From: a virus
Lineage: Duplodnaviria > Heunggongvirae > Uroviricota > Caudoviricetes
Virus record (IMG/VR): IMGVR_UViG_2617270998_000003
Coordinates: 1 to 12,248 of that record
Direction: 5' to 3' (one strand)
Length of the DNA: 12,248 nt
The position numbers and the translations under genes were made by a program. The notes under the pieces were generated by a model that did not search any database, had not been told where the DNA came from, and saw only the letters and a program-made list of their open reading frames with translations. Each line of letters starts with the position of its first letter. Within the stretch, counting starts at the first letter, position 1. Shown piece by piece: positions 1-12,248 of this stretch.

Positions 1-2
1 GG

Positions 3-710
3 CCTCATTCCGACTGGCACAGCGAGAACATGACCACAATGCGACACGCGCCGGGTGCAATCCGTCTGTGCTGGCACTGCGATAACCAGCTGCGCGATCA
101 GTTCACGGAACGGCTGGAATCAATGGCAACGGATAACTGTGCCCGCTGGGTGTTGTCTGTTGTGCGTCGGGATCTCGGTTTTGATGACAGTCACGTTGTG
201 ACAATGCCGGAACTGTGCTGGTGGCTGATTCGTAATGATCTGGCGGATGCCTTACCGGAAAGTGCAGCCCGTAAGGCACTGAGATTACCGAAGCCTGTTG
301 TGCCGTCTGTTACCCGGGAAAGTGACCTTGTGCCTTCGGTTCCTGCCACCAGCATCATCCAGGATAAGGCGAAAAAGGTGCTGGCGCTGAAAGTGGATCC
401 GGAGTCGCCGGAGTCTTTTATGTTACGCCCAAAACGTCGCCGCTGGGTTAATGAAAAGTACACGCGCTGGGTTAAGACACAGCCGTGTGCATGTTGTGGA
501 AAGCCCGCTGATGATCCCCACCACCTGATAGGTCACGGTCAGGGTGGAATGGGAACAAAAGCGCATGACCTTTTTGTGTTGCCTTTGTGCAGAAAGCATC
601 ACGACGAGCTGCATGCGGATACCGTGGCATTTGAAGAGAAGTATGGCTCCCAGCTGGAGCTGATATTTCGTTTTATCGATCGTGCGCTGGCAATTGGCGT
701 ACTGGCCTGA
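3..710 (+). CDS. DUF968-like phage protein with C-terminal HNH-like Cys/His cluster; 5' end probably lies outside the window
   Basis: Frame is open from nt 3 with no stop before the first ATG at 30 and no obvious SD at 30. C-terminal motif CACCGKPADDPHHLIGHG...CRKHHDELH. Position directly upstream of Q matches ydfU-like genes of lambdoid prophages (recalled, not searched). Confidence 0.6.
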   Translation, partial: PHSDWHSENMTTMRHAPGAIRLCWHCDNQLRDQFTERLESMATDNCARWVLSVVRRDLGFDDSHVVTMPELCWWLIRNDLADALPESAARKALRLPKPVVPSVTRESDLVPSVPATSIIQDKAKKVLALKVDPESPESFMLRPKRRRWVNEKYTRWVKTQPCACCGKPADDPHHLIGHGQGGMGTKAHDLFVLPLCRKHHDELHADTVAFEEKYGSQLELIFRFIDRALAIGVLA

Positions 711-727
711 TTTTGTGGAGAAAGGTG

Positions 728-1093
728 ATGCGTGATATTCAGATGATACTTGAACGTTGGGGAGCATGGGCTGCGAGTGATAACTCTGGTGTTGATTATT
801 CACCTATAGCTGCTGGGTTTAAGGGACTTCTTCCCTATACCAGCAAGAAACGCTTGGCTTGTTCGGATAGTGATGCATTAATTATTGAAGGTTGTCTTGC
901 TCGTCTAAAGCAAAAAAGACCTTATGAGCATTCGCTTCTTGTGGCACATTATTTATACAGAATATCCAAGCGTAAGATTGCAAAGGCGCGTGGAAAGGAT
1001 GAGAAATTGATACGTATAGAAATACAGCTAGCCGAAGGATTTATTGATGGCTGCCTTTCCATGCTAGATCTAACATTAGATTTGGACGTTTAA
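728..1093 (+). CDS. Q: Late-gene antitermination protein Q (Q82/QuuQ-like)
   Basis: ATG at 728 preceded by GGAG (717-720); the track's 713 start is a TTG. N-terminus MRDIQMILERWGAWAA...IAAGFKGL closely resembles E. coli prophage Q antiterminators as I recall them. Lies upstream of the lysis cassette. Confidence 0.8.
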   Translation: MRDIQMILERWGAWAASDNSGVDYSPIAAGFKGLLPYTSKKRLACSDSDALIIEGCLARLKQKRPYEHSLLVAHYLYRISKRKIAKARGKDEKLIRIEIQLAEGFIDGCLSMLDLTLDLDV

Positions 1094-1096
1094 TAA

Positions 1097-1128
1097 AATA
1101 CGCCCCATGCAGGGGCGTATTATTTACT
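1097..1128. terminator. Bidirectional intrinsic terminator between the convergent Q and KAP NTPase genes
   Basis: Perfect 10-bp stem AATACGCCCC (1097-1106) / GGGGCGTATT (1112-1121) with 5-nt loop ATGCA; T/A-rich on both sides (TTAATAAAA upstream, TATTTACT downstream). Sits between stop codons at 1091-1093 and 1124-1126. Confidence 0.65.
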
Positions 1129-2455
1129 GAATGAATGACATTTGATTGATATATTTTATCAATAACTCTCTGGGTGTAGTGCTCCAAAAATTTAGGTGGT
1201 CATAATCAGTATAAACTTTGGTGAACCTTTTTAGTTCTTCATCACTTTTAGGAGCAAATCGCTCATTAAGAGTAATACTGTCTTTAATTATTCCAAAGAA
1301 TACAATTGATATTTTAGGGATTTTCGAACTCATCTCATAAGAATAAGGTATCTCTTTTATTTTAAGCAGGTCTGCTAAATAAGATATAGATTCAGCGGTA
1401 ATTTCGTGTTTTAGTTTTTCCTTGTCACCAAAGCAATGTATGAAGACAGCTACGACAAAGATCATATTTATAAAACGATCACTACTGTTGTCTTCATTGT
1501 CGTTTAACAGTTGAAAAATGTTAAGATTGCGTGAAAATGTTTGTGTTTCACGTAATGATAAGTTGGTTCGTTGAATTAAATCACGGATAAAATAACCTGA
1601 TAAGCTATTGATTTCATTTAATGATCTTGTTTTTTCTACAAGGTAATTCCAATATATAACAGAGGCTTTACATACGTCGTGACCATTTATCAAACATGTA
1701 TCTGGAAGCGTGATGGTATATTTTATAAACTTGTCAAGATACTTTTGTGAGTTAATACTATAACCATAAATATGATTTATCGATGCTCTTAATTGTTCTG
1801 TGTTTGTAACTAAAATAAAAAAGACATTATTGATGTCAAAAATGTGTTTTATTGTTTCAATGACATTTGTTGAAAAACTCGGCTTACATCGGTCTAATTC
1901 ATCAATTATAATTACTATCTTTTGATTTTCTGAAATACTTTCGATGCAAGATTTAAGTGAATTTATGTTTTTCTCTGATTCCATATGGTCTTCAAGCAAA
2001 TTTTCAATAGTCCCATCTATTGCTGCATTGCTTGCTTTCTTCATCGCATCTTGGAATTCTTCGGCAACTTCACTAGCCTCCTGTCGTAAAAACCAACCTG
2101 CACCAGCTTTTAGTACAGTTTTTAAACCAAATCGAATTGCAGGAAGAGATCTCTTAATGAAGTGTTGTTTTTCTTCCTCAGGCAAAATGCTGGCAATTGC
2201 AGAGGTTATGAGAAGTAATGGAGATTCTGCATGATCCCCTTTAAAGGCATCAATATAAACAACTTTAGATTCGGGTTCTTGCTCAATAATGAGATTTTTC
2301 AGTTTGATACTAAATTCTGATTTCCCTGTTCCCCATGCGCCATCTATTACCAGTGGTGAAATGTCTGCCTCTGGTTTTAGCAACTTGATGATATTTTCAG
2401 CGATGTTTCTTCGTTGGAACTCGTCACGTTCAGTGAACGATAGTGTATCTAACAT
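1124..2455 (-). CDS. KAP-family P-loop NTPase (PifA-like), 443 aa, in an AT-rich insertion
   Basis: Walker A GAWGTGKS near residue 40; Walker B with the KAP-type hhhhDELDR signature (IVIIIDELDRCKP); no evident transmembrane helices. Only minus-strand gene in the window; about 32% GC versus over 50% in flanking phage genes. Confidence 0.8.
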   Translation of the reverse strand: MLDTLSFTERDEFQRRNIAENIIKLLKPEADISPLVIDGAWGTGKSEFSIKLKNLIIEQEPESKVVYIDAFKGDHAESPLLLITSAIASILPEEEKQHFIKRSLPAIRFGLKTVLKAGAGWFLRQEASEVAEEFQDAMKKASNAAIDGTIENLLEDHMESEKNINSLKSCIESISENQKIVIIIDELDRCKPSFSTNVIETIKHIFDINNVFFILVTNTEQLRASINHIYGYSINSQKYLDKFIKYTITLPDTCLINGHDVCKASVIYWNYLVEKTRSLNEINSLSGYFIRDLIQRTNLSLRETQTFSRNLNIFQLLNDNEDNSSDRFINMIFVVAVFIHCFGDKEKLKHEITAESISYLADLLKIKEIPYSYEMSSKIPKISIVFFGIIKDSITLNERFAPKSDEELKRFTKVYTDYDHLNFWSTTPRELLIKYINQMSFIQ

Positions 2456-2517
2456 AATATAAACCTGTTAACTCCTACAGTAAAAAACGAATAATACGAC
2501 TTTGGGATTAAAAATCA

Positions 2518-2546
2518 TTAACGCGGTCCGCAAAAATTCTTGTAAT
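2518..2546 (+). promoter_or_regulatory. Candidate late promoter (PR'-like) and Q-utilisation region
   Basis: TTAACG (2518-2523), 17-bp spacer, TGTAAT (2541-2546); located about 35 bp upstream of a strong terminator and about 200 bp upstream of the holin, as for lambda PR'/tR'. Hexamer match is imperfect. Confidence 0.4.
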
Positions 2547-2578
2547 CTGTTAAGAGTGGTTACTTCGCCACACAGCTT

Positions 2579-2610
2579 AAACCCGCCATTGAGCGGGTTT
2601 TGTCTTTTCT
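2579..2610 (+). terminator. Intrinsic terminator (tR'-like) ending a short late-leader transcript
   Basis: 8-bp stem AAACCCGC (2579-2586) / GCGGGTTT (2593-2600), 6-nt loop, then TTTTGTCTTTTCT. Confidence 0.6.
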
Positions 2611-2752
2611 GGGCCTTGGTATTCGTTGGGCTTGGTCTATCTAGTACTTATCCATTGGCTCGACTTCTTTTACGTTTCCGCTTCTGATTTGCGGTTCGTG
2701 GTACTCCCTCAATTTACACCTCCTGTATCGGCGAGGTGAGAGATAACTACAA

Positions 2753-3079
2753 ATGCCTCATAACCCAAATACCTGGCTGGAGTTGTTCCAGAGCTGGTGG
2801 CGTGGAGATACGCCTCTTGGCGCAGTGATTATGTCGATTGTTATGGCTGGATTGCGCATTGCCTATTTTGGCGGTGGTGGTGGGGGGAAGCGAAAAACGC
2901 TCGAGATTTTGCTCTGTGGTGCTCTGACGCTGACTTTTGCATCCGCTCTTGAGTATGTCGGATGGCCTAAATCACTTTCTGTTGCCATTGGTGGCGGTGT
3001 TGGGCTGATTGGTGTCGATGCAATTCGTGGGGCTGCAATGAGAGTGATCGGTAACAAGTTTGGTGGCTCTAAGGAGTAA
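2753..3079 (+). CDS. S: Holin, lambda S-like (class I, three predicted TMDs)
   Basis: 108 aa with hydrophobic segments and a charged C-terminus; resembles lambda S in architecture; immediately precedes the endolysin with stop 3077-3079 and the R SD AAGGAG at 3071-3076. Confidence 0.8.
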   Translation: MPHNPNTWLELFQSWWRGDTPLGAVIMSIVMAGLRIAYFGGGGGGKRKTLEILLCGALTLTFASALEYVGWPKSLSVAIGGGVGLIGVDAIRGAAMRVIGNKFGGSKE

Positions 3080-3082
3080 TTT

Positions 3083-3559
3083 ATGCAGATACTAAATTCC
3101 CAGCGTAAAGCTTTCCTGGATATGGTGGCATGGTCAGAAGGAACGGATAACGGGCGACAACCGACACATAATCACGGTTATGACGTTATTGTCGGTGGTG
3201 AACTCTTCACTGATTACTCCGACCACCCTCGCAAACTTGTCACGCTAAACCCAAAACTTAAATCAACGGCTGCTGGACGCTACCAGATTCTTTCCCGATG
3301 GTGGGATGCTTACCGTAAACAGCTTGGTCTGAAAGACTTCTCCCCCAAAAGCCAGGACGCAGTGGCATTGCAGCAGATTAAAGAGCGTGGCGCTTTACCG
3401 ATGATTGATCGCGGTGATATCCGTCAGGCTATCGATCGTTGCAGCAATATCTGGGCTTCACTGCCGGGTGCAGGTTACGGTCAGTATGAACATAAAATCG
3501 GTGACCTGATTGCCCGATTTAAAGAGGCTGGTGGGGGGGGAAATGAAGTTGAGTTATAA
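3083..3559 (+). CDS. R: Endolysin, lambda R-type lytic transglycosylase
   Basis: Near-identity over long stretches to lambda R as I recall it (QRKAFLDMVAWSEGTDNGRQ..., HGYDVIVGGELFTDYSDHPRKLVTLNPKLKST, RYQILSRWWDAYRKQLGLKDFSPKSQDAVALQQIKERGALPMIDRGDIRQAIDRCSNIWASLPGAGYGQ). SD AAGGAG 3071-3076. Confidence 0.95.
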   Translation: MQILNSQRKAFLDMVAWSEGTDNGRQPTHNHGYDVIVGGELFTDYSDHPRKLVTLNPKLKSTAAGRYQILSRWWDAYRKQLGLKDFSPKSQDAVALQQIKERGALPMIDRGDIRQAIDRCSNIWASLPGAGYGQYEHKIGDLIARFKEAGGGGNEVEL

Positions 3560-3977
3560 GCTGATTATCGCTGCTTTTTTCGTTACTGCCATTGGTTCTT
3601 TCATCTGGTCAGCCAGCTACTACTACAGCAAATATCAGTACGAAAAGAAACGTGCTGATGAGGCTGTACAAAATGCTGAATCAGCAACTGCCATTACCAA
3701 TAACGTCCTGCAATCAATGCAAATCGTCAATACAGTTTGGGAGGCTAACCAGCATGCAAAACAGCAGATCGCACTGGAGTCACAGAGAACCCAGGAAGAT
3801 ATCAAAGTGGCTGTTGCGGATGATGATTGTGCTTCACGTCCTGTGCCTGCTGCCGCTGCTGACCGGTTGCGAAAGTACGCGGACAGTTTACGTAACAGTA
3901 CCTCCAATTCCGCTTCCAGCTACTCTGACTTTGGAAACGCCAGTACCGCACATACCAGATACCCTGACCTATGGTGA
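3543..3977 (+). CDS. Rz: i-spanin (Rz-like), N-terminal TMD
   Basis: ATG at 3543 follows the G8 tract (3533-3540) and overlaps the 3' end of R; the track's 3510 start is a TTG inside R. N-terminal hydrophobic helix KLIIAAFFVTAIGSFIW and a charged, helical central region. C-terminal 25 aa are Ser-rich and atypical. Confidence 0.65.
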   Translation: MKLSYKLIIAAFFVTAIGSFIWSASYYYSKYQYEKKRADEAVQNAESATAITNNVLQSMQIVNTVWEANQHAKQQIALESQRTQEDIKVAVADDDCASRPVPAAAADRLRKYADSLRNSTSNSASSYSDFGNASTAHTRYPDLW

Positions 3978-4068
3978 CAGCCTGGAGTTGAATGTGAGTC
4001 TGTTGTCGGCGTTGGAACAGTGTAATTTTGATAAAGCGACAATAAAAAGTATTGATGCTAACAAGTAA
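3820..4068 (+). CDS. Rz1: o-spanin (Rz1-like) lipoprotein, +1 frame relative to Rz
   Basis: ATG at 3820 inside Rz; signal peptide MMIVLHVLCLLPLLTG|C with lipobox LTGC; Pro-rich mature region VPPIPLPATLTLETPVPHIP. Extends 91 nt past the Rz stop. Confidence 0.6.
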   Translation: MMIVLHVLCLLPLLTGCESTRTVYVTVPPIPLPATLTLETPVPHIPDTLTYGDSLELNVSLLSALEQCNFDKATIKSIDANK

Positions 4069-4130
4069 AAGAGCCTGCACCTTTATAGAGATGATTCCAT
4101 GTTAATATCGCTCCTTTAACGGGAGGCATT

Positions 4131-4622
4131 ATGATGGATTGGAATATGTGGTCTGCTATTGGGGCTTGTGGTTCGGCTATCGCGTCTTTTGGGGCGTTGT
4201 GTTATGCCCGTAAGGCGTTAAACACATGGAATAGACAGGAGCAATTTAAAGTAAAGTTAGAGTTTAAGAGAGCTTTACTTCAGTTGGAGGATGCCTTTGA
4301 GGCAATGCCTGATAATTGGAATTCCGTACAGTATAGAATAGCCAAAACATTTGCGTCTCAGCGGGGCAACGATATATATAATGGAGTTGTTGAGGCTGAA
4401 AAACAGCTGTTTTATAAAAAACAAAACCTTAATTTAGCGTACGGACATTCCGTACAGGCATGGGTTTTGTGTGAAGAACTGTTTAAAGACAATACTATTC
4501 ATGATGAATGGAAAGCTTTCAGAATTAGTTATGATAATTACATTCTGAATGGTGGGAACAAAAATGATTATTTGCCAATGATAAAAAATATATATTCAAA
4601 AATTCCTGTGTTTAATGGTTGA
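4131..4622 (+). CDS. Hypothetical protein, 163 aa, N-terminal hydrophobic helix; AT-rich insertion
   Basis: SD GGGAGG (4121-4126) then ATG 4131 (second ATG at 4134). N-terminus WSAIGACGSAIASFGALCYA is TM-like. About 35% GC. No family recognised. Confidence 0.6.
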   Translation: MMDWNMWSAIGACGSAIASFGALCYARKALNTWNRQEQFKVKLEFKRALLQLEDAFEAMPDNWNSVQYRIAKTFASQRGNDIYNGVVEAEKQLFYKKQNLNLAYGHSVQAWVLCEELFKDNTIHDEWKAFRISYDNYILNGGNKNDYLPMIKNIYSKIPVFNG

Positions 4623-4634
4623 TTTCTATACGAA

Positions 4635-4659
4635 ATGGAAAATATGTTCCATCTTTTTT
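4635..4659 (+). terminator. Weak candidate terminator after the hypothetical gene
   Basis: 6-bp stem ATGGAA (4635-4640) / TTCCAT (4647-4652), loop AATATG, then CTTTTTT (4653-4659). Stem is AT-rich and may be too weak. Confidence 0.3.
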
Positions 4660-4670
4660 AGGGAAATTAT

Positions 4671-5021
4671 ATGCCCCCACGAACCCCAAAAGCCTGCCGC
4701 ATTCGAGGCTGCCGCAATACCACCACGGACCCGTCAGGCTACTGCGAAAGCCACAAAAGCGAAGGCTGGAAGCAATACAAGCCAGGACAATCCCGTCATC
4801 AGCGCGGCTACGGTTCGAAATGGGATGCTATCCGTGAACGTGTACTGAAGCGTGACAAGGGCCTGTGTCAGTTATGTCTGCGTGCCGGTGTGGTGCGTGA
4901 GGCGAAAACCGTTGACCACATCATCCCTAAAGCGCATGGCGGCACTGATGCCGACAGTAATCTGCAGAGTCTGTGCTGGCCCTGCCATAAGGCGAAGACG
5001 GCCCGTGAACGGTTAAAGTGA
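4671..5021 (+). CDS. HNH endonuclease, terminase-associated (HK97 gp74-like)
   Basis: Cys/His motifs CRIRGC...C, CQLC, DHIIPKAHGGTDADSNLQSLCWPCH; located directly upstream of terminase small subunit, as in HK97-like phages. Confidence 0.9.
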   Translation: MPPRTPKACRIRGCRNTTTDPSGYCESHKSEGWKQYKPGQSRHQRGYGSKWDAIRERVLKRDKGLCQLCLRAGVVREAKTVDHIIPKAHGGTDADSNLQSLCWPCHKAKTARERLK

Positions 5022-5047
5022 TAATAATTCTCAACTGTCTGAGGGGA

Positions 5048-5107
5048 GGGGCGGGTCAAATCTCTGTGACCTGACGTCTTCCGGACTGCCCGCCCCATCG
5101 TTTTTTT
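5048..5107. other. GC-rich dyad-symmetric element plus T7 run; candidate cos/packaging region or terminator
   Basis: GGGGCGGG (5048-5055) and its exact reverse complement CCCGCCCC (5089-5096) separated by 33 nt, followed by ATCGTTTTTTT (5097-5107); sits between the HNH gene and terS. Confidence 0.35.
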
Positions 5108-5146
5108 ATACCCGCGAAAAATGAAATTTAACCAGGAGTGCCGCAT

Positions 5147-5641
5147 ATGGCTGGAACGGTGGGGCGTTCCGGGCGTCGCCCCAAGCCAACGGCGCGCAAG
5201 GCGCTGGCCGGAAACCCCGGCAAGCGAGCCCTGAATAAAGATGAACCTGTTTTTACGCCCATCAAAGGTGTTGAGCCACCGGAGTGGTTCGCTGAAGAAG
5301 ATCTCCCTCTCGCTACGATCATGTGGCAACTGACAACTAAAGAACTCTGCGGTCAGGGCCTGCTATGCGTGACTGACCTGGCGGTACTTGAGCGGTGGTG
5401 CGTGGCCTATGAGTTCTGGCGACGTGCCGTGAAAAATATTGCCATACAGGGCAACACCATCACCGGTGCAATGGGCGGCAGGGTCAAAAATCCGGAGCTG
5501 ACCGCCAAAAAAGAACAGGAGTCCGAGATGAGCAGCACGGGTGCAATGCTCGGACTCGACCCCAGCAGCCGCCAGCGTCTGATTGGCCTGGCGGGGCAGA
5601 AGAAAGCCACTAACCCGTTTCTGAAAATCATCGAGTCATGA
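5147..5641 (+). CDS. terS: Terminase small subunit (P27/HK97 gp1 family)
   Basis: AGGAG (5134-5138), 8-nt spacer, ATG 5147; the track's 5138 start is a GTG within the SD. Basic N-terminus, conserved position upstream of TerL with ATGA overlap at 5638-5641. Confidence 0.85.
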
Positions 5642-7371
5642 GCAGGAAATCTTACCCCAACGTAAATGCTGCCAATCAGTATGCCCGTGATGTCGTGCGC
5701 GGAAAGATTGTGGCCTGCCAGTTTGTGATTCAGGCCTGCCAGCGCCATCTTGATGACCTGATGGCGGAAAAAAGTAAGTCGTTTCGTTACCGCTTCGACA
5801 AGGACCTGGCTGAACGGGCCGCGAAATTTATTCAGCTGTTGCCACACACCAAGGGGGAGTGGGCATTCAAACGGATGCCCATCACGCTGGAGCCGTGGCA
5901 GCTCTTTGTGATCTGCTGCGCGTTTGGCTGGGTCAATAAAGGCTCCCGGCTGCGCCGCTTCCGGGAGGTGTATACCGAAATCCCCCGTAAGAACGGCAAA
6001 TCGGCAATCTCTGCCGGTGTTGCCCTGTATTGTTTTGCCTGTGATAACGAGTTCGGCGCGGAAGTGTATTCCGGTGCCACGACGGAGAAACAGGCATGGG
6101 AAGTCTTTCGTCCGGCACGACTGATGTGTAAACGCACACCCATGCTGACGGAAGCGTTCGGGATTGAGGTTAACGCCTCAAACATGAACCGTCCGGAGGA
6201 TGGTGCGCGGTTTGAACCGCTGATCGGTAACCCCGGTGATGGTTCATCACCCCACTGTGCCGTGGTGGATGAATATCACGAGCACGCCACCGATGCGCTT
6301 TACACCACGATGCTTACCGGGATGGGGGCGCGACGTCAGCCCCTGATGTGGGCTATCACCACCGCCGGGTACAACATTGAGGGGCCGTGCTACGACAAAC
6401 GGCGGGAAGTCATCGAGATGCTCAACGGTTCGGTACCCAACGATGAACTGTTCGGGATCATCTATACCGTTGATGAAGGTGACGACTGGACCGACCCGCA
6501 GGTGCTGGAAAAAGCCAATCCAAATATTGGCGTGTCGGTTTATCGCGAATTTTTGTTAAGTCAGCAACAGCGTGCGAAAAATAACGCCCGTCTGGCAAAC
6601 GTCTTTAAAACAAAGCACCTCAATATCTGGGTGTCGGCGCGTTCGGCGTATTTCAACCTGGTGAGCTGGCAGAGCTGCGAGGATAAATCACTGACCCTTG
6701 AGCAGTTCGAGGGGCAGCCGTGCATTCTGGCCTTTGACCTGGCGCGTAAGCTGGATATGAACAGCATGGCGCGACTTTATACCCGCGAGATTGACGGTAA
6801 AACGCATTACTACAGTGTGGCCCCGCGTTTCTGGGTACCGTATGACACGGTGTACAGCGTCGAGAAAAATGAAGATAGACGGACAGCCGAACGCTTTCAG
6901 AAATGGGTGGAAATGGGCGTCCTGACCGTTACCGATGGTGCAGAGGTGGATTATCGCTACATCCTCGAGGAGGCCAAAGCGGCGAACAAAATCAGCCCGG
7001 TCAGTGAGTCACCCATCGACCCCTTCGGGGCGACCGGGCTGTCACATGACCTTGCTGATGAAGATCTGAATCCCGTCACTATCGTCCAGAACTTCGCCAA
7101 TATGTCCGATCCGATGAAAGAGCTGGAAGCAGCGATTGAATCGGGACGCTTTCATCATGACGGCAATCCCATCATGACCTGGTGTATCGGCAATGTGGTC
7201 GGCAAAAACATGCCAGGTAACGATGATTTAGTGAAGCCCGTCAAGGAGCAGGCGGAAAACAAAATCGATGGTGCGGTTGCACTGATTATGACGATCGGTC
7301 GGGCAATGCTCAAAGAACCTGACGATTTCCTCTCATCTCTTGATCCGGACGATGATCTCTTAATTCTATGA
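5638..7371 (+). CDS. terL: Terminase large subunit (HK97 gp2-like)
   Basis: 577 aa; size, position and acidic nuclease-like motifs consistent with TerL; gene order TerS, TerL, portal. Confidence 0.9.
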
Positions 7372-7529
7372 AATCACTAATTGCTGATGTTATCGGGCTG
7401 GCTGGTTTTGGCCTGCTTACGTGCGGGGTTTACCTGCAGTTTGGTATGGCTCCGGCTCTGATTTTGTCCGGTGCTTTACTGCTGGTGGGCGCACTGGCTA
7501 TGGCCAGAAGGGGGACGCGTGCTGCTTGA
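7368..7529 (+). CDS. Possible small membrane protein (53 aa, two predicted TM helices) between TerL and portal
   Basis: ATG 7368 overlaps the TerL stop (ATGA); translation [53 protein letters not shown]; absent from the ORF track because it is under 60 aa. No SD; could be non-coding. Confidence 0.35.
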
Positions 7530-8745
7530 TGCTCTGTTCAGAAGTAAATCACTGGAGAATCCTTCCACCCCGATAACCGGTGATGCCGTTGATACTGATG
7601 GGCTGTTCCGGGCAGACGTTTATGTCAGTCCTGAGACTGCGATGAAACTGGCTGCGGTGTATTCCTGTATCTATGTCCTGTCTTCCAGCCTTGCCCAGAT
7701 GCCGTTGCATGTTATGCGCAGGCACAAGGGGAAGGTTGAACCCGCACGCGATCATCCGGCGTTTTATCTGGTTCATGATGAGCCCAATACCTGGCAAACC
7801 AGCTACAAATGGCGCGAACTGAAGCAACGTCACATCCTTGGCTGGGGGAATGGGTATACCTGGGTGAAACGTAATCGTCGCGGTGAAGTCATATCCCTGG
7901 ATTGCTGTATGCCGTGGGAAACGACGCTGATGAATACTGGTGGCCGATATACCTACGGTTTGTACAACGAATATGGGGCGTTTGCGATCAGTCCGGACGA
8001 TATGATCCACATCCGTGCGCTGGGTAATAATCAGAAGATGGGGCTGAGTCCGATTATGCAACATGCCGAAACAATAGGCATGGGGATGAGCGGTCAGAAG
8101 TACACAGAAAGCTTCTTCAGCGGTAATGCCCGTCCGGCGGGGATAGTATCCGTTAAAAGCGGACTCAATAAGGAAAGCTGGGGCTGGCTTAAAGATCAGT
8201 GGCAGAAGGCATCGCAGGCGTTACGCCGCCAGGAAAACAAAACCATGCTGCTGCCAGCCGATCTGGATTACAAGGCACTGACTGTGTCGCCAGTTGACGC
8301 TCAGATCATTGACATGATGAAGCTGAACCGTTCAATGATCGCCGGTATTTTCAATATTCCTGCGCACATGATTAATGACCTCGAAAAAGCCACCTTCTCC
8401 AATATTTCTGCGCAGGCGATTCAGTTTGTCCGCTACACGATGATGCCGTGGGTGACGAACTGGGAGCAGGAGCTTAACCGTCGCTTGTTTACCCGCGCTG
8501 AGTTAGCCGCCGGGTATTACGTCAGGTTCAATCTGACGGGGCTTTTACGCGGAACTCCGCAGGAGCGCGCGCAATTCTATCACTTCGCTATTACCGATGG
8601 ATGGATGAGCCGTAATGAGGCCCGCGCATTCGAGGATATGAATCCGGTTGAAGGGCTGGATGAGATGCTGGTAAGCGTGAACGCAGCTAACCCGGCAGGA
8701 GATTTTAAGCCCCCAAAAAACGATGAGGGAAAAACCAATGAATGA
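7519..8745 (+). CDS. Portal protein (HK97 family)
   Basis: Over 400 aa following TerL; start uncertain. GTG 7519 has GGGGGA 4 nt upstream. The track's ATG at 7471 gives a Trp-rich N-terminus [11 protein letters not shown] that looks like out-of-frame membrane-ORF sequence. Confidence 0.8.
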   Translation: MLLDALFRSKSLENPSTPITGDAVDTDGLFRADVYVSPETAMKLAAVYSCIYVLSSSLAQMPLHVMRRHKGKVEPARDHPAFYLVHDEPNTWQTSYKWRELKQRHILGWGNGYTWVKRNRRGEVISLDCCMPWETTLMNTGGRYTYGLYNEYGAFAISPDDMIHIRALGNNQKMGLSPIMQHAETIGMGMSGQKYTESFFSGNARPAGIVSVKSGLNKESWGWLKDQWQKASQALRRQENKTMLLPADLDYKALTVSPVDAQIIDMMKLNRSMIAGIFNIPAHMINDLEKATFSNISAQAIQFVRYTMMPWVTNWEQELNRRLFTRAELAAGYYVRFNLTGLLRGTPQERAQFYHFAITDGWMSRNEARAFEDMNPVEGLDEMLVSVNAANPAGDFKPPKNDEGKTNE

Positions 8746-9340
8746 CCGTGAAATCCGTTGTTACAGCGGTGAGGTGCGTGCTGAGAGGCATGACGATAAC
8801 CCGGCGCACATTATCGGTTATGGATCGGTGTTTGACTGTCGTTCTGAGCTGATATTCGGTTCATTCCGCGAAATCATCCGGCCCGGCGCTTTTGACGATG
8901 TGCTTGGTGATGATGTACGCGCACTGTTTAACCACGATCCTAATTTTATTCTTGGGCGTAGTGCAGCAGGCACGCTGAATCTTTCAGTTGATGAACGCGG
9001 ATTACGCTATGACATCCAGGCTCCTGAGACACAGACCATTCGTGATCTGGTGCTGGCCCCGATGCAACGTGGAGATATTAACCAGTCATCTTTCGCTTTC
9101 CGTGTCGCCCGTGACGGTGAGGAGTGGTATCAGGATGAGGACGGGGTTGTTATTCGCGAGATAACCCGCTTTTCCCGTCTGCTGGATGTCAGCCCTGTGA
9201 CATATCCTGCCTATCAGGAGGCTGACTCGGCTGTTCGCTCCATGAAAGCATGGCAGGAGGCGCGCAACAGCGGCGCGCTACAGAAAGCCATTAATCAACG
9301 TATGGCGCGTGAACGCGTCCTGACCCTTCTTAACGCGTAA
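8738..9340 (+). CDS. Prohead maturation protease (HK97 gp4-like, S78 family)
   Basis: Position between portal and major capsid; start ATG 8738 with GAGGGA 8 nt upstream (ATG 8723 also possible); overlaps the portal stop. Confidence 0.85.
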   Translation: MNDREIRCYSGEVRAERHDDNPAHIIGYGSVFDCRSELIFGSFREIIRPGAFDDVLGDDVRALFNHDPNFILGRSAAGTLNLSVDERGLRYDIQAPETQTIRDLVLAPMQRGDINQSSFAFRVARDGEEWYQDEDGVVIREITRFSRLLDVSPVTYPAYQEADSAVRSMKAWQEARNSGALQKAINQRMARERVLTLLNA

Positions 9341-9350
9341 AGGAAACATC

Positions 9351-10580
9351 ATGAAACTGCATGAACTGAAACAGAAACGTAATACTATCGCAACTGACAT
9401 GCGCGCCCTGAATGAAAAAATTGGTGATAACGCATGGACGGAAGAGCAGCGCACTGAGTGGAACAAAGCAAAATCCGAACTGGAAGCGCTTGATGAACGA
9501 ATTGCACGCGAAGAAGAACTGCGTCGTCAGGATCAGGCGTACATTGAAAGCAATGAGGAAGAGCAGCGTCAGAATCTTGATCCGGAAAACAATTCGCAAC
9601 AGGATGAGAAACGAGCTCAGGTTTTTGATAAGTGGATGCGTCACGGTGCCAGTGAGCTGACATCAGAAGAGCGAAAGGCGTTGCGTGAACTTCGTGCCCA
9701 GGGTGTAGCTCAGGATGAAAAGGGCGGATATACCGTACCAGAAACATTCCTGGCGAAAGTTGTTGAGAAGATGAAATCCTACGGTGGCATCGCCAGTGTG
9801 GCACAGATTCTGACCACTTCTGACGGTCGCACCATGGAGTGGGCAACAGCTGATGGTACTTCCGAAGTTGGTGTTCTGCTGGGCGAAAATGAAGAAGCCG
9901 GTGAAGAAGACACCGATTTCGGTATGGGAAGCCTTGGGGCGCTCAAAATGACATCGAAAATCATTCGTGTGTCTAATGAGTTGCTGCAGGACAGCGCGAT
10001 CGATATGGAAGCTTATCTTGCCCGTCGCATTGCTGAACGTATTGGTCGTGGTGAAGCCCGTTATCTGATTCAGGGGACTGGTGCGGGTACGCCTAAACAA
10101 CCCAAAGGGCTGGCAGCATCAGTGGCCGGCACAACACAGACTGCCGCGGCAAATGCGGTGAAGTGGCAGGAAATTCTGGCTCTGAAACACAGCATTGATC
10201 CTGCATATCGTCGCGGACCGAAATTCCGCCTGGCGTTTAACGATAATACGCTGAAACTGATCAGTGAGATGGAAGACGGTCAGGGACGCCCTTTATGGTT
10301 GCCGGATATTGTTGGTGTGGCACCTGCTTCAGTGTTGAATGTACCGTATGTCATTGATCAGGAAATTGATGATATCGGGGCGGGTAAAAAATTCATATTC
10401 TGTGGTGACTTTGATCGCTTCATTATCCGTCGTGTGCGATACATGATTCTTAAACGTCTGGTTGAGCGTTACGCGGAATATGATCAGACCGGTTTTCTGG
10501 CCTTCCATCGTTTTGACTGTATCCTGGAAGACACCTCTGCCATTAAAGCGCTGGTGGGGAAAGGTAGCGTTGGTGGTTGA
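9351..10580 (+). CDS. Major capsid protein (HK97 gp5-like) with N-terminal scaffold-like delta domain
   Basis: 409 aa; charged coiled-coil-like N-terminus of roughly 100 aa (EELRRQDQAYIESNEEEQRQ) followed by capsid-fold region; SD AAAGGA; follows the protease. Confidence 0.9.
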   Translation: MKLHELKQKRNTIATDMRALNEKIGDNAWTEEQRTEWNKAKSELEALDERIAREEELRRQDQAYIESNEEEQRQNLDPENNSQQDEKRAQVFDKWMRHGASELTSEERKALRELRAQGVAQDEKGGYTVPETFLAKVVEKMKSYGGIASVAQILTTSDGRTMEWATADGTSEVGVLLGENEEAGEEDTDFGMGSLGALKMTSKIIRVSNELLQDSAIDMEAYLARRIAERIGRGEARYLIQGTGAGTPKQPKGLAASVAGTTQTAAANAVKWQEILALKHSIDPAYRRGPKFRLAFNDNTLKLISEMEDGQGRPLWLPDIVGVAPASVLNVPYVIDQEIDDIGAGKKFIFCGDFDRFIIRRVRYMILKRLVERYAEYDQTGFLAFHRFDCILEDTSAIKALVGKGSVGG

Positions 10581-10600
10581 TTAGTCTTTTTACGTAATAC

Positions 10601-10627
10601 AGCACGCCGCGTAATGCGGTTTTTTTG
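10601..10627 (+). terminator. Candidate terminator after the major capsid gene
   Basis: Short stem CCGC (10607-10610) / GCGG (10616-10619), loop GTAAT, then T7 (10620-10626). Stem is weak. A stronger 8-bp hairpin GTGCCCGC/GCGGGCAC (10627-10648) follows, abutting the next SD. Confidence 0.35.
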
Positions 10628-10658
10628 TGCCCGCGTTCTGGCGGGCACAGGAGGTTTT

Positions 10659-10982
10659 ATGCTGTTAAAAATGGAAGAGATTAAGCTTCAGCTTCGTCTG
10701 GATGATGATTTCTCTGATGAAGATGAGTTGCTTGAACTACTTGGGAAGGCCGCTCAGAGTCGGACGGAAAACTTCCTTAACCGTACGTTGTATGCAACCG
10801 CAGATGACAGGCCTGCGGATGATCCTGATGGGCTTGTGATATCTGATGATGTGAAGCTGGCGCTTCTGCTACTTGTCAGCCATTTCTACGAAAACCGCTC
10901 AACGGTTACAGACGTTGAGAAAATGGAGTTGCCAATGAGTTTTAACTGGTTGGTTGCTCCTTATCGCCTTATACCACTATGA
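10659..10982 (+). CDS. Head-tail connector protein (gp6-like)
   Basis: AGGAGG (10649-10654) then ATG 10659; N-terminus MLLKMEEIKLQLRLDDDFSDEDELLELL typical of gp6-type connector proteins; the track's 10614 start lies within the hairpin. Confidence 0.75.
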   Translation: MLLKMEEIKLQLRLDDDFSDEDELLELLGKAAQSRTENFLNRTLYATADDRPADDPDGLVISDDVKLALLLLVSHFYENRSTVTDVEKMELPMSFNWLVAPYRLIPL

Positions 10983-11389
10983 AAATTCGTCAGGCGCAGA
11001 CCAGCGCAACCTACATTCTGCCGGACCCCGGCGAACTGAATAAACGCGTCCTGATCCGCCAGCGGGTGGATATGCCCGCGGATAACTTTGGCGTGGAGCC
11101 TCAATACCCGGTTGCGTTCCGGGCATGGGCGAAGGTTATCCAGACCAGTGCCACCACCTGGCAGGAAACTGCGCAGACCGGAGACGCCATCACCCATTAC
11201 ATCACCATTCGCTACCGCCGGGGGATCACTGCTGATTATGAGGTGGTCTGTGGTGACAGTGTGTACCGGGTGAAACGTCAGCGTGATCTGAACGGAGCGC
11301 GGCGCTTTCTGCTGCTGGAGTGTACGGAGCTGGGTGCCGAAGAACAAATGGGAGGACGCAGTGGATCAGACAGCATTTTTACACGTTGA
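10979..11389 (+). CDS. Head-tail adaptor / head closure protein
   Basis: ATG 10979 overlaps the upstream stop (ATGA); size and position match head-tail joining proteins of HK97-like phages. C-terminal extent uncertain because the next gene overlaps. Confidence 0.65.
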   Translation: MKIRQAQTSATYILPDPGELNKRVLIRQRVDMPADNFGVEPQYPVAFRAWAKVIQTSATTWQETAQTGDAITHYITIRYRRGITADYEVVCGDSVYRVKRQRDLNGARRFLLLECTELGAEEQMGGRSGSDSIFTR

Positions 11390-11885
11390 TTTCAAACAAC
11401 CGGAGGAGATGGAGTTTAACCGTGCCAGGCTCCGAAGGGCATTTGTTCAAATCGGGCGTGTCTATATGCGTGATGCCCGGCGGATGGTGATGCGACGTGG
11501 TCGGTCTGCTCCAGGTGAAAACCCCGGCTATCAGACCGGACGACTTGCGCGTTCTATAGGTTATTACGTCCCCCGTAAAAGCTCCCGTCGTTCTGGCCTG
11601 ATGGTCAGGATTTCCCCTAACCAGAAAAACGGGCAGGGTAACCGGCGTTTTCCTGAAGGATCTGCGTATTATCCGGCGTTTCTGTATTACGGTGTGCGTC
11701 ATGCCGCATATGGGATGAGCAAAAAGGATAAGCGCCAGAAAAAGCAGCATTCATCCCGCTGGCGGCTGGCACCACGTAATAACTTTATGGCTGATGTCAT
11801 CGACCAGCGTCGTTACTGGACACAAAAGTTACTGTCCCGTGAGTTACAGCGGTCATTACGTCCTGTAAGAAGGAAAAAAACATGA
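11361..11885 (+). CDS. HK97 gp10-family tail-component protein
   Basis: Family-like motifs GYQTGRLARSIGYYV and YYPAFLYYGVRH; likely start GTG 11361 with GGGAGG (11349-11354) 6 nt upstream; track's start 11334 is also a GTG. Confidence 0.65.
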   Translation: MDQTAFLHVDFKQPEEMEFNRARLRRAFVQIGRVYMRDARRMVMRRGRSAPGENPGYQTGRLARSIGYYVPRKSSRRSGLMVRISPNQKNGQGNRRFPEGSAYYPAFLYYGVRHAAYGMSKKDKRQKKQHSSRWRLAPRNNFMADVIDQRRYWTQKLLSRELQRSLRPVRRKKT

Positions 11886-12248
11886 AACTGACGCCTGTTA
11901 TTGCTGCACTGCGTGCCCGCTGCCCGTATTTTGAAAACCGGGTGGCAGGCGCGGCCCAGTTCAAAAATCTGCCGGAGGTCGGAAAGCTGAGACTCCCGGC
12001 GGCGTATGTGGTACCGGGGGATGACTCTCCGGGAGAAAACAAAAGCCAGACCGACTACTGGCAGGAGCTGAAAGAGGGCTTCTCCGTGGTTGTCATACTG
12101 AGTAACTGGCGTGATGAGCGCGGTCAGTTTGCCTCGTATGATGTGGTGGACGATGTCCGGCAGATGCTCTTTAAGGCTCTGCTGGGCTGGAACCCGGAAG
12201 CGTGCGGTAACCCGATTACCTATGACGGCGGCACGCTGCTGGATCTGA
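11882..12248 (+). CDS. Tail completion / neck protein, 3' end outside the window
   Basis: ATG 11882 overlaps the upstream stop (ATGA); frame open to the end of the window (MKLTPVIAALRARCPYFENRVAGAAQFKNLPEVGKLRLPAAYVVPGDD...). Confidence 0.6.
   Translation, partial: MKLTPVIAALRARCPYFENRVAGAAQFKNLPEVGKLRLPAAYVVPGDDSPGENKSQTDYWQELKEGFSVVVILSNWRDERGQFASYDVVDDVRQMLFKALLGWNPEACGNPITYDGGTLLDL

Follow-up and report, generated by a model that had tools for sequence, protein, structure and literature searches.

A putative Q-dependent late promoter cassette separated from its Q gene by an antisense KAP NTPase module in a lambdoid prophage

The organisation of late gene control was analysed in a 12,248-nt stretch of DNA from a virus of the class Caudoviricetes (positions 1 to 12,248 of IMG/VR record IMGVR_UViG_2617270998_000003), referred to below as the window. 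An antiterminator gene of the Q type is followed there by a gene for a KAP-family NTPase on the opposite strand, and beyond it lie a block resembling the late promoter and terminated leader (pR' and tR') of lambdoid phages and then the late genes (Table 1). GC content is about 52% before the insert, falls to 27-38% across 1100-2500 and recovers past 2600 (flanks about 50%). The product of the Q gene matched Pfam family PF06530 over its full length (E=2.3e-51) and is 45% identical to Q of 933W. As a single sequence it gave no match in the PDB; a profile search was required, and the profile of the Q alignment retrieved the phage 21 Q structures 6JNX and 6P18 (E=4.4e-10). By these matches Q of the window is placed in the Q21/Q933W family, both members of which belong to PF06530 (Yin et al., 10.1101/651190).

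Table 1. Genes and predicted control elements of the window. Signed positions are relative to the predicted transcription start.
Feature	Coordinates	Strand	Remarks
DUF968/HNH gene	30-710		leftmost gene of the window
Antiterminator Q gene	728-1093	+	121 aa from ATG at 728; open reading frame opens at TTG 713
GC-rich hairpin	1097-1121	both	between the Q and KAP stop codons; candidate bidirectional terminator; left end of the inserted module
KAP-family P-loop NTPase gene	1124-2455	-	443 aa
Spacer between KAP gene and holin gene	2456-2752		297 nt
5' region of KAP gene	2456-2521	-	candidate promoter TTAATG (2521-2516), 19 nt, TATTAT (2496-2491), 8/12 in a relaxed scan
Left edge of cassette	2510-2523	+	A-tract, then -35-like TTAACG (2518-2523)
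Palindrome in promoter spacer	2523-2531		GCGGTCCGC; candidate Q-binding element; centre at about -28
Predicted -10 element	2543-2548	+	TAATCT; homologous to the annotated 933W -10 TATCAT
Near-invariant motif	2551-2558	+	TAAGAGTG; spans the predicted start
Candidate sigma-dependent pause element	2552-2557 (-4 to +3)	+	AAGAGT; has the key A and T; near-invariant
Predicted 5'-terminal stem-loop of leader	2556-2572 (+2 to +18)	+	GUGGU/GCCAC; in minimum free energy and centroid folds
Predicted intrinsic terminator of leader (tR'-like)	2579-2610	+	8-bp stem at 2579-2600, then UUUUGUCUUUUCU
Untranslated stretch, terminator to holin	2611-2752	+	72-86% identity in SfIV, SfII and PA-2-type phages
Holin gene, first late gene	2753-3079	+	ATG at 2753; Pfam Phage_holin_3_1, E=7.4e-24
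Endolysin gene	3083-3559	+	
Rz gene	3510-3977	+	
Terminase genes, small and large subunits	5138-7371	+	Pfam terminase domains

The block at 2510-2604 (95 nt, a single occurrence in the window) recurred in 82 phage records when phage genomes were searched with the DNA sequence, and a 19-nt core of it retrieved at least 120 viral contigs. Position 2510 is the point at which homology begins among loci that carry different cargo. In 933W, TTTACGATCGTAAAAATCTGCATATCATGATAAGAGTGGTTACATTGCCACGCAG...CCCGCCGATGCGCGGGTTTTTTT aligns with the cassette of the window, and the sequence just past Q, TTTACGATCGTAAAAATCTGCATATCATGATAAGAGTGGTTACATTGCCACGCAGTCGAACCCGCCGATGCGCGGGTTTTTTT, is homologous to window positions 2518-2604. 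The 933W record annotates TTTACG-16-TATCAT as pR' (the number giving the spacer in bp), along with a qut site and a hairpin as possible terminator. Judged by this homology, 2510-2604 is a conserved late promoter cassette corresponding to the annotated pR' and terminator region of 933W. The two have in common a palindrome in the promoter spacer, a -10 hexamer of the form TAnnnT, the start region AAGAGTGGTTAC and a hairpin at about +25 to +50. They differ in several respects. In 933W the -35 element overlaps the 3' end of Q with no cargo between, the cargo (tRNAs and stx2) lies downstream of pR' in sense orientation, and the mapped tR' is a second terminator at +258. The palindromes are also different, TTTACGATCGTAAA in 933W and GCGGTCCGC in the window, and the spacers measure 16 and 19 bp, respectively. 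The pR' region of 933W, as in H-19B and Sakai Sp5, is the source of StxS RNA.

The distance from the Q stop codon (1091-1093) to the cassette is 1,418 nt in the window, and pR' does not adjoin Q here. Among 104 contigs with Q upstream, the gap is 1-7 nt in six and 583-2,883 nt in the other 98. The six short-gap loci, all from IMG/VR, are five of the type of prophage PPyecE_EH1910, in which the homologous block starts right at the Q stop codon, and locus L073. The arrangement of the window recurs in loci L083, which is identical, and L089. An unbiased sample was assembled from one genome per species with loci retrieved through Q alone (80 loci). The cassette was recognised in 66 of these species-level loci, of which 32 have it next to Q (-30 to +41 nt), while in the other 34 it is displaced, by 149-2,850 nt. 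In complete E. coli genomes, the exact order of Q, KAP gene and cassette was found in 50 of 5,426, at about 96% identity; strains XH988 and W619 are examples of carriers of this prophage. The ancestral layout is the one in which the cassette adjoins the Q stop codon. The displaced arrangement is common among relatives and is already present in the sequenced phages PA-2, DLP12, SfIV, cdtI and mEp390. Minus-strand genes intervene there: two in phage cdtI, two together with an IS1 in Shigella phage SfIV, and the porin Lc/OmpD in PA-2-type phages. Separation from Q is a variant feature of the cassette and no ground to exclude it from the pR'-qut-tR' class.

The initial annotation had proposed that an inserted gene displaces the late promoter and its terminated leader by about 1.4 kb from Q. 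The Q stop codon, the KAP open reading frame, the holin ATG, the promoter hexamers and the hairpin on which it was built were all found where it had put them, and the displacement is borne out by the adjacent cassette of relatives, the 933W homology and the layout of phage 21, where pR' begins 7 nt past the Q stop codon. In the literature searched, no paper was found on the exact cassette sequence and none describing the displaced arrangement as such.

To position the promoter elements, 44 distinct homologues of the cassette from many genera were aligned without gaps. The same annotation had given the promoter as TTAACG-17-TGTAAT (2518-2546). Its -35 hexamer holds, since TTAACG at 2518-2523 aligns with the annotated 933W -35 TTTACG, and its -10 hexamer is 2 nt off. 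In the alignment, the hexamer immediately preceding G(T/A)TAAGAG has the form TAnnnT, its A and T being invariant, and because this frame is invariant the -10 element is predicted to be TAATCT at 2543-2548. The frame of TGTAAT (2541-2546) is not conserved and was rejected. The TTAACG-17-TGTAAT pair was also not called by a standard promoter scan, TGTAAT having no A at its second position. Such scans are of limited use in this region, where 12 promoter-like sites were found against 7.4 +/- 2.6 expected from shuffling, which is not clearly above chance. At the sequence level, what raises the promoter above chance is conservation among relatives and not the match to consensus.

Transcription is predicted, by homology, to start near A2555 (+/-1), within the motif TAAGAGTG that is near-invariant across genera. 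The start of pR' and the 3' end of tR' were mapped in the Sakai phages, near-identical to 933W, by dRNA-seq and Term-seq and lie 258 nt apart (Sy et al., PMC7547250). In 933W, this distance measured upstream from the U-run of the second terminator leads to the A of AAGAGTGG (+/-2 nt) as the start, and this A is homologous to A2555. The 258-nt spacing was used for this purpose in place of the published coordinate, from which the homologous A is 141 nt off; versions of the Sakai genome differ. A further candidate, TTAAAA-18-AAAAAT (2508-2537) in the A-tract, with TAATCT as a pause element, had the top score in a relaxed scan. It was rejected because its -35 lies in cargo-specific sequence and the 258-nt spacing of 933W fits a start after TATCAT, not one 11 nt upstream. 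A TTG-started open reading frame of 61 codons (2502-2687, plus strand) spans the entire cassette, and hypothetical proteins are annotated at the homologous place in some phage records; neither it nor these annotated homologues are probably genes.

The leader RNA expected from this start would run from 2555 to about 2604-2610, so the earlier estimate of 50-60 nt was about right. From A2555 the leader has a minimum free energy of -18.8 kcal/mol (z=-3.1 versus shuffled sequences). The strong terminator proposed at 2579-2610 was called independently by a terminator scan. Its hairpin has arms AAACCCGC/GCGGGTTT at 2579-2600, followed by TGTCTTTTCT, and folds with -11.6 kcal/mol (z=-3.8). The first terminator annotated in 933W is its homologue, and most E. 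coli-type homologues conserve it, loci L073 and L121 being among the few without it; other genera have a different hairpin at the same position. Terminator scans called no second terminator between 2611 and the holin gene at 2753. In the 933W record (locus L130) the homologous hairpin at 1385-1407 has a 7-U tract, yet the second terminator (1588-1616) is where the pR' RNA ends according to the published mapping; either the proximal hairpin of 933W is leaky or very short RNAs were missed there.

Modest support was obtained for the 5' stem at 2556-2572. Across the 44 homologues 86.8% of its cells are paired, one pair covaries (AU 11, GC 9, GU 5) and wobble variants are present. Its role could be to shield the long late mRNA at its 5' end, or it could form part of a small RNA. 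The overlapping AAGAGT may act as the pause element at which Q is loaded; by analogy with lambda, the pause would then fall at C2566/G2567. A second candidate, TACTTC at 2561-2566, is homologous to TACATT of 933W (+7 to +12, annotated as qut) and has no final T.

Across 99 loci a short palindrome followed by an A-tract is always found in the promoter spacer, and the sequence of the palindrome follows the Q clade, with minor exceptions, independent of the cargo. The Q clade of the window (23 loci, 12 sequence variants, several cargo families) has GCGGTCCGC, as does a sister clade (5 loci). The palindrome is GCGTACGC in a third clade (18 loci), TTTACGTACGTAAA or TTTACAATCGTAAA in the PA-2/DLP12 clade (47 loci), TGTTATAACA in a fourth clade (5 loci) and GCGGGCCGC in a single divergent locus. 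Further palindromes at the same spacer position are TTCGTAACGAA, TGTAATTACA and TGGAATTCCA, and other genera have different ones there. This pairing of Q clade and palindrome persists against freely reassorting cargo and downstream sequence. The Q residues that diverge most between clades form a helix-turn-helix-like stretch (positions 78-100 of the window's Q). As it changes in step with the Q clade, the palindrome at 2523-2531 is likely to be the Q-binding site. The clade-specific palindromes suggest a readable specificity code for this Q subfamily.

The layout was compared with those of other known systems. The pR' of phage 21 has been dissected experimentally, and Q of this phage (structures 6P18, 6P19 and 6JNX) is distantly homologous to that of the window. 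Phage 21 likewise has a -35, a Q site in the spacer, a -10, a start and a terminator within about 50 nt. Its annotation gives TTGACA as the -35, a Q-binding element (QBE) ATTGAGCA/AATGAGCA filling the spacer, AACACT as the -10, a sigma-dependent pause element (SDPE) TAAGCT at +2 to +7 and a terminator at +3 to +50. The SDPE resembles TAAGAG(T) of the window, the look-alike lying at -4 to +3. There is no detectable DNA homology between the two regions, and the QBE of phage 21 is a direct repeat whereas the candidate in the window is a 9-bp palindrome.

The lambda region encoding pR', 6S RNA and tR' is alike in logic: a constitutive promoter beside Q has its Q site between the -35 and -10 elements, polymerase pauses early in a sigma-dependent manner, and the leader is terminated. 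Its early transcribed sequence AACGATGGGTTAATTCGC (locus L129, 788-805) is strikingly similar to AAGAGT-GGTTACTTCGC of the window (2552-2569), AAGAGT itself resembling AACGAT-GGG of lambda. Q of lambda is of an unrelated family, PF03589, and this likeness despite unrelated Qs could be attributed to shared polymerase and sigma constraints or to a shared ancestral module. Lambda differs also in its leader of 194 nt, in a pause element at +1 to +6 and in having pR' about 45-80 bp past Q with no inserted gene (in L129, Q end 710, -35 at 753, start 788).

The porin morons of PA-2 (lc) and DLP12 (nmpC) have the identical order of Q, minus-strand cargo with its own terminator, the same type of cassette and holin. 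They differ in the porin cargo, in the distance from cargo start to cassette (about 400 bp, as opposed to 54 bp in the window), and in the palindrome TTTACGTACGTAAA. Judged from published primers and numbering, the DLP12 lysis promoter of the literature maps beside the start of the porin gene (loci L005-L008; in L005, for example, near 2667), and the cassette there is about 210 bp upstream of holin. This essD promoter has been described as RpoE-dependent. The essD promoter fragment is numbered -121 to +650 (PMC7918800). In DLP12 and PA-2, the promoter responding to Q may be situated about 350 bp downstream of the one published for essD.

Three features of the class are present in the window: a PF06530 Q upstream on the same strand, homology to an annotated pR', and a terminator before the first late gene. 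From the homology, the conservation, the layout and the covariation of palindrome with Q clade, we infer that 2510-2610 is a Q-dependent late promoter cassette of the pR' type, belonging to a lambdoid prophage with a Q of the Q21/Q933W family, and a probability of about 0.8 is assigned to this reading. In such a system, sigma-70 RNA polymerase would use TTAACG and TAATCT and start near A2555. In the absence of Q, it would stop at the hairpin and U-tract following it, producing an RNA of about 50 nt with the 5' stem-loop. After induction, Q would bind the palindrome in the spacer and be loaded onto polymerase paused within the early transcribed sequence. The Q-loaded enzyme would then pass the terminator and enter productive transcription of holin, endolysin, Rz, terminase and head genes. 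The self-contained, low-GC antisense module has been placed precisely in the gap of a few nucleotides that separates the Q stop codon from the -35 region in the ancestral layout.

Several points weigh against this interpretation. TTAACG-19-TAATCT scores only 7/12 by consensus; with a spacer of 19 bp, compared to 16 in 933W and PA-2, the promoter looks weak on paper and its basal activity is uncertain. The U-tract of the window has only four U before a G, shorter than that of 933W, and the hairpin may therefore be leaky. The homologous first hairpin of 933W is evidently read through without Q to the second terminator at +258, and no such terminator precedes holin here. Either the hairpin of the window is efficient in its context, or the weak promoter limits leakage. 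The conserved AAGAGT overlaps the predicted start, an unusual geometry, and there is no clear -10-like pause element having both A and T at +1 to +15. Lastly, the published +1 of the DLP12 lysis promoter is about 350 bp upstream of the cassette (position inferred from the primers in PMC7918800). The window has no room for a distant upstream promoter of the DLP12 type.

The conservation of the transcribed part could also be read differently. If the cassette mainly made a regulatory RNA of about 50 nt in the lysogen (5' stem-loop, CA-rich linker and terminator, comparable to StxS or to the leader RNA of lambda pR'), with Q control secondary, such a small RNA (sRNA) role would account for its extreme conservation. 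Conservation is higher in the transcribed 50 nt, which are near-identical across Q clades, than in the promoter hexamers, and the leader folds better than shuffled sequences. pR'-terminated RNAs acting as sRNAs are documented (PMC7547250), and prophage sRNAs as short as 51-60 nt are also known from the vicinity of pR' (PMC4104026). However, no Rfam family, AgvB, AsxR and STnc100 included, matched at E<=1 across the whole window, and at E<=10 only terminator-like chance matches were seen in 2440-2780. Among known prophage sRNAs considered as counterparts, AgvB/AsxR (PMC4104026) and the Pas sRNAs (bioRxiv 2026.05.13.724894) are sited elsewhere or unmatched. The linker and terminator vary across genera while TAAGAGTG and the stem are kept, a pattern more in keeping with a function at the 5' end of the RNA or at the polymerase than with a fixed seed. 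A predominantly sRNA function is unlikely on this evidence, and an sRNA role is in any case compatible with the promoter role.

The weak consensus match, the 19-bp spacer, the short interrupted U-tract and the read-through of the homologous 933W hairpin to +258 without Q would also fit a scheme in which the hairpin at 2579-2600 is inefficient and the promoter near-inactive until activated by palindrome-bound Q, which would then be mainly an activator. This is considered improbable, as proteins of the Q21 family have been shown structurally to be antiterminators loaded at a paused complex (10.1101/651190), a terminator-like hairpin differing in sequence between genera is found at this position in most homologues, and phage 21 has an annotated terminator at the same place. 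It is very improbable that the late start lies right after Q at CTAACA-18-TAAAAT (1070-1099), with transcription antisense through KAP and 2510-2610 as an internal attenuator: the site scores 9/12 in the scan and the hairpin at 1097-1121 follows it, but it is part of the Q coding sequence and would place the start within that hairpin, which varies by cargo family and is the cargo's own. The site is homologous to no pR' cassette, promoter-like sites are not clearly in excess in this region, and the conserved cassette with its Q-clade-specific palindrome is located at 2510-2610.

With 2510-2610 regarded as the Q-dependent late promoter cassette, the DNA between it and Q is a 1.4-kb module of low GC content, consisting of a terminator hairpin, the minus-strand KAP gene and a 5' region of 54 nt. 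The hairpin folds with -17.5 kcal/mol on the plus and -17.6 kcal/mol on the minus strand (z about -4.5), and in mEp390 terminators are annotated on both strands at the corresponding place. The encoded protein matched Pfam KAP_NTPase (E=9.9e-71) and, over its full length, PADLOC PDC-S20 (E=2.5e-176); PifA (1e-17) and QatA were also matched. The KAP NTPase is thus a candidate anti-phage defence protein of the PDC-S20 type. In the phage collection its gene was matched by one record only, and weakly (a Salmonella genomic contig, 33% coverage, 66% identity). The module is a typical moron: an extra gene absent from PPyecE-type relatives, of deviant GC content, with its own hairpin and with conserved phage flanks, its promoter being only a weak candidate. 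It breaks neither neighbour and is outside the late transcript.

The promoter of the KAP gene may lie within 2456-2560. TTAATG-19-TATTAT is the only minus-strand candidate with workable geometry, and it is weak. Two minus-strand sites from the standard scan were rejected because they end at or beyond the ATG of the gene and are unable to serve it. The -35 of the remaining candidate (2521-2516) would overlap the late -35 on the opposite strand, and it is a reasonable idea that cargo and late genes may share a compact control region. A relaxed scan detected no conserved minus-strand promoter inside the cassette able to drive any cargo. In many cargo families the start codon is 12-60 nt from the cassette, and the promoter question is therefore common to all.

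The 98 displaced loci carry 25 unrelated cargo families, with nearly all genes on the minus strand and a GC content of 0.31-0.42. A GC-rich hairpin of its own is found within about 60 nt of the Q stop codon in roughly 20 of the 25 families (fam2 and fam22 are without it); since this hairpin differs in each family, it belongs to the cargo. Other cargos matched PDC-S42, an OLD/HEC-04-like ATPase beside a methylase, and an NYN-like protein. The junction of Q and pR' is a recurrent slot for antisense cargo. Being upstream of the late start and facing away from it, the cargo could therefore be expressed in the lysogen, outside the late transcript. It is proposed tentatively, the balance being somewhat against it, that the short gap of a few nucleotides separating the Q stop codon from the pR' -35 is an exchange slot dedicated to self-terminated antisense cargo, a large share of which looks defence-like, with the cassette and the 3' end of Q serving as recombination anchors and the palindromes as the accompanying recognition code. 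No defence hotspot at the Q/pR' junction and no palindrome recognition rule for Q was found described in the literature searched; if true, the exchange-slot reading would supply both.

This kind of system is already known, and the arrangement is widespread and little remarked. What the present analysis adds is the corrected -10 with a predicted start, the candidate Q palindrome with its clade code, and the Q/pR' junction as a recurrent antisense cargo slot. For the window, it fixes the expected late start and the expected Q recognition sequence, and places a KAP defence candidate outside the late operon. For thousands of Enterobacterales prophages, the succession of palindrome and A-tract, TAnnnT, G(T/A)TAAGAGTG and hairpin provides an annotation rule for pR'. 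The palindromes would predict which Q acts on which promoter, which is relevant to Stx phages with these Q types, and the Q/pR' junction appears to be a productive place to seek new prophage-borne defence genes.

Some minor features were seen around and downstream of the late start. An inverted repeat, CACCTC...GAGGTG, at 2717-2738 just upstream of the holin start is kept in SfIV and PA-2-type phages and might affect holin translation. A (G/T)-rich run coding poly-Gly lies within holin at about 2868-2889, and a run of eight G at 3533-3540, at the end of the endolysin gene and just ahead of the Rz start; both may be prone to slippage or to sequencing errors. In the interval from the lysis genes to terminase, an open reading frame of 163 aa at 4131-4622 is without a Pfam match and GC content has a trough of 0.30-0.32 at 4400-4700, and the region 4131-4700 may be another inserted gene.

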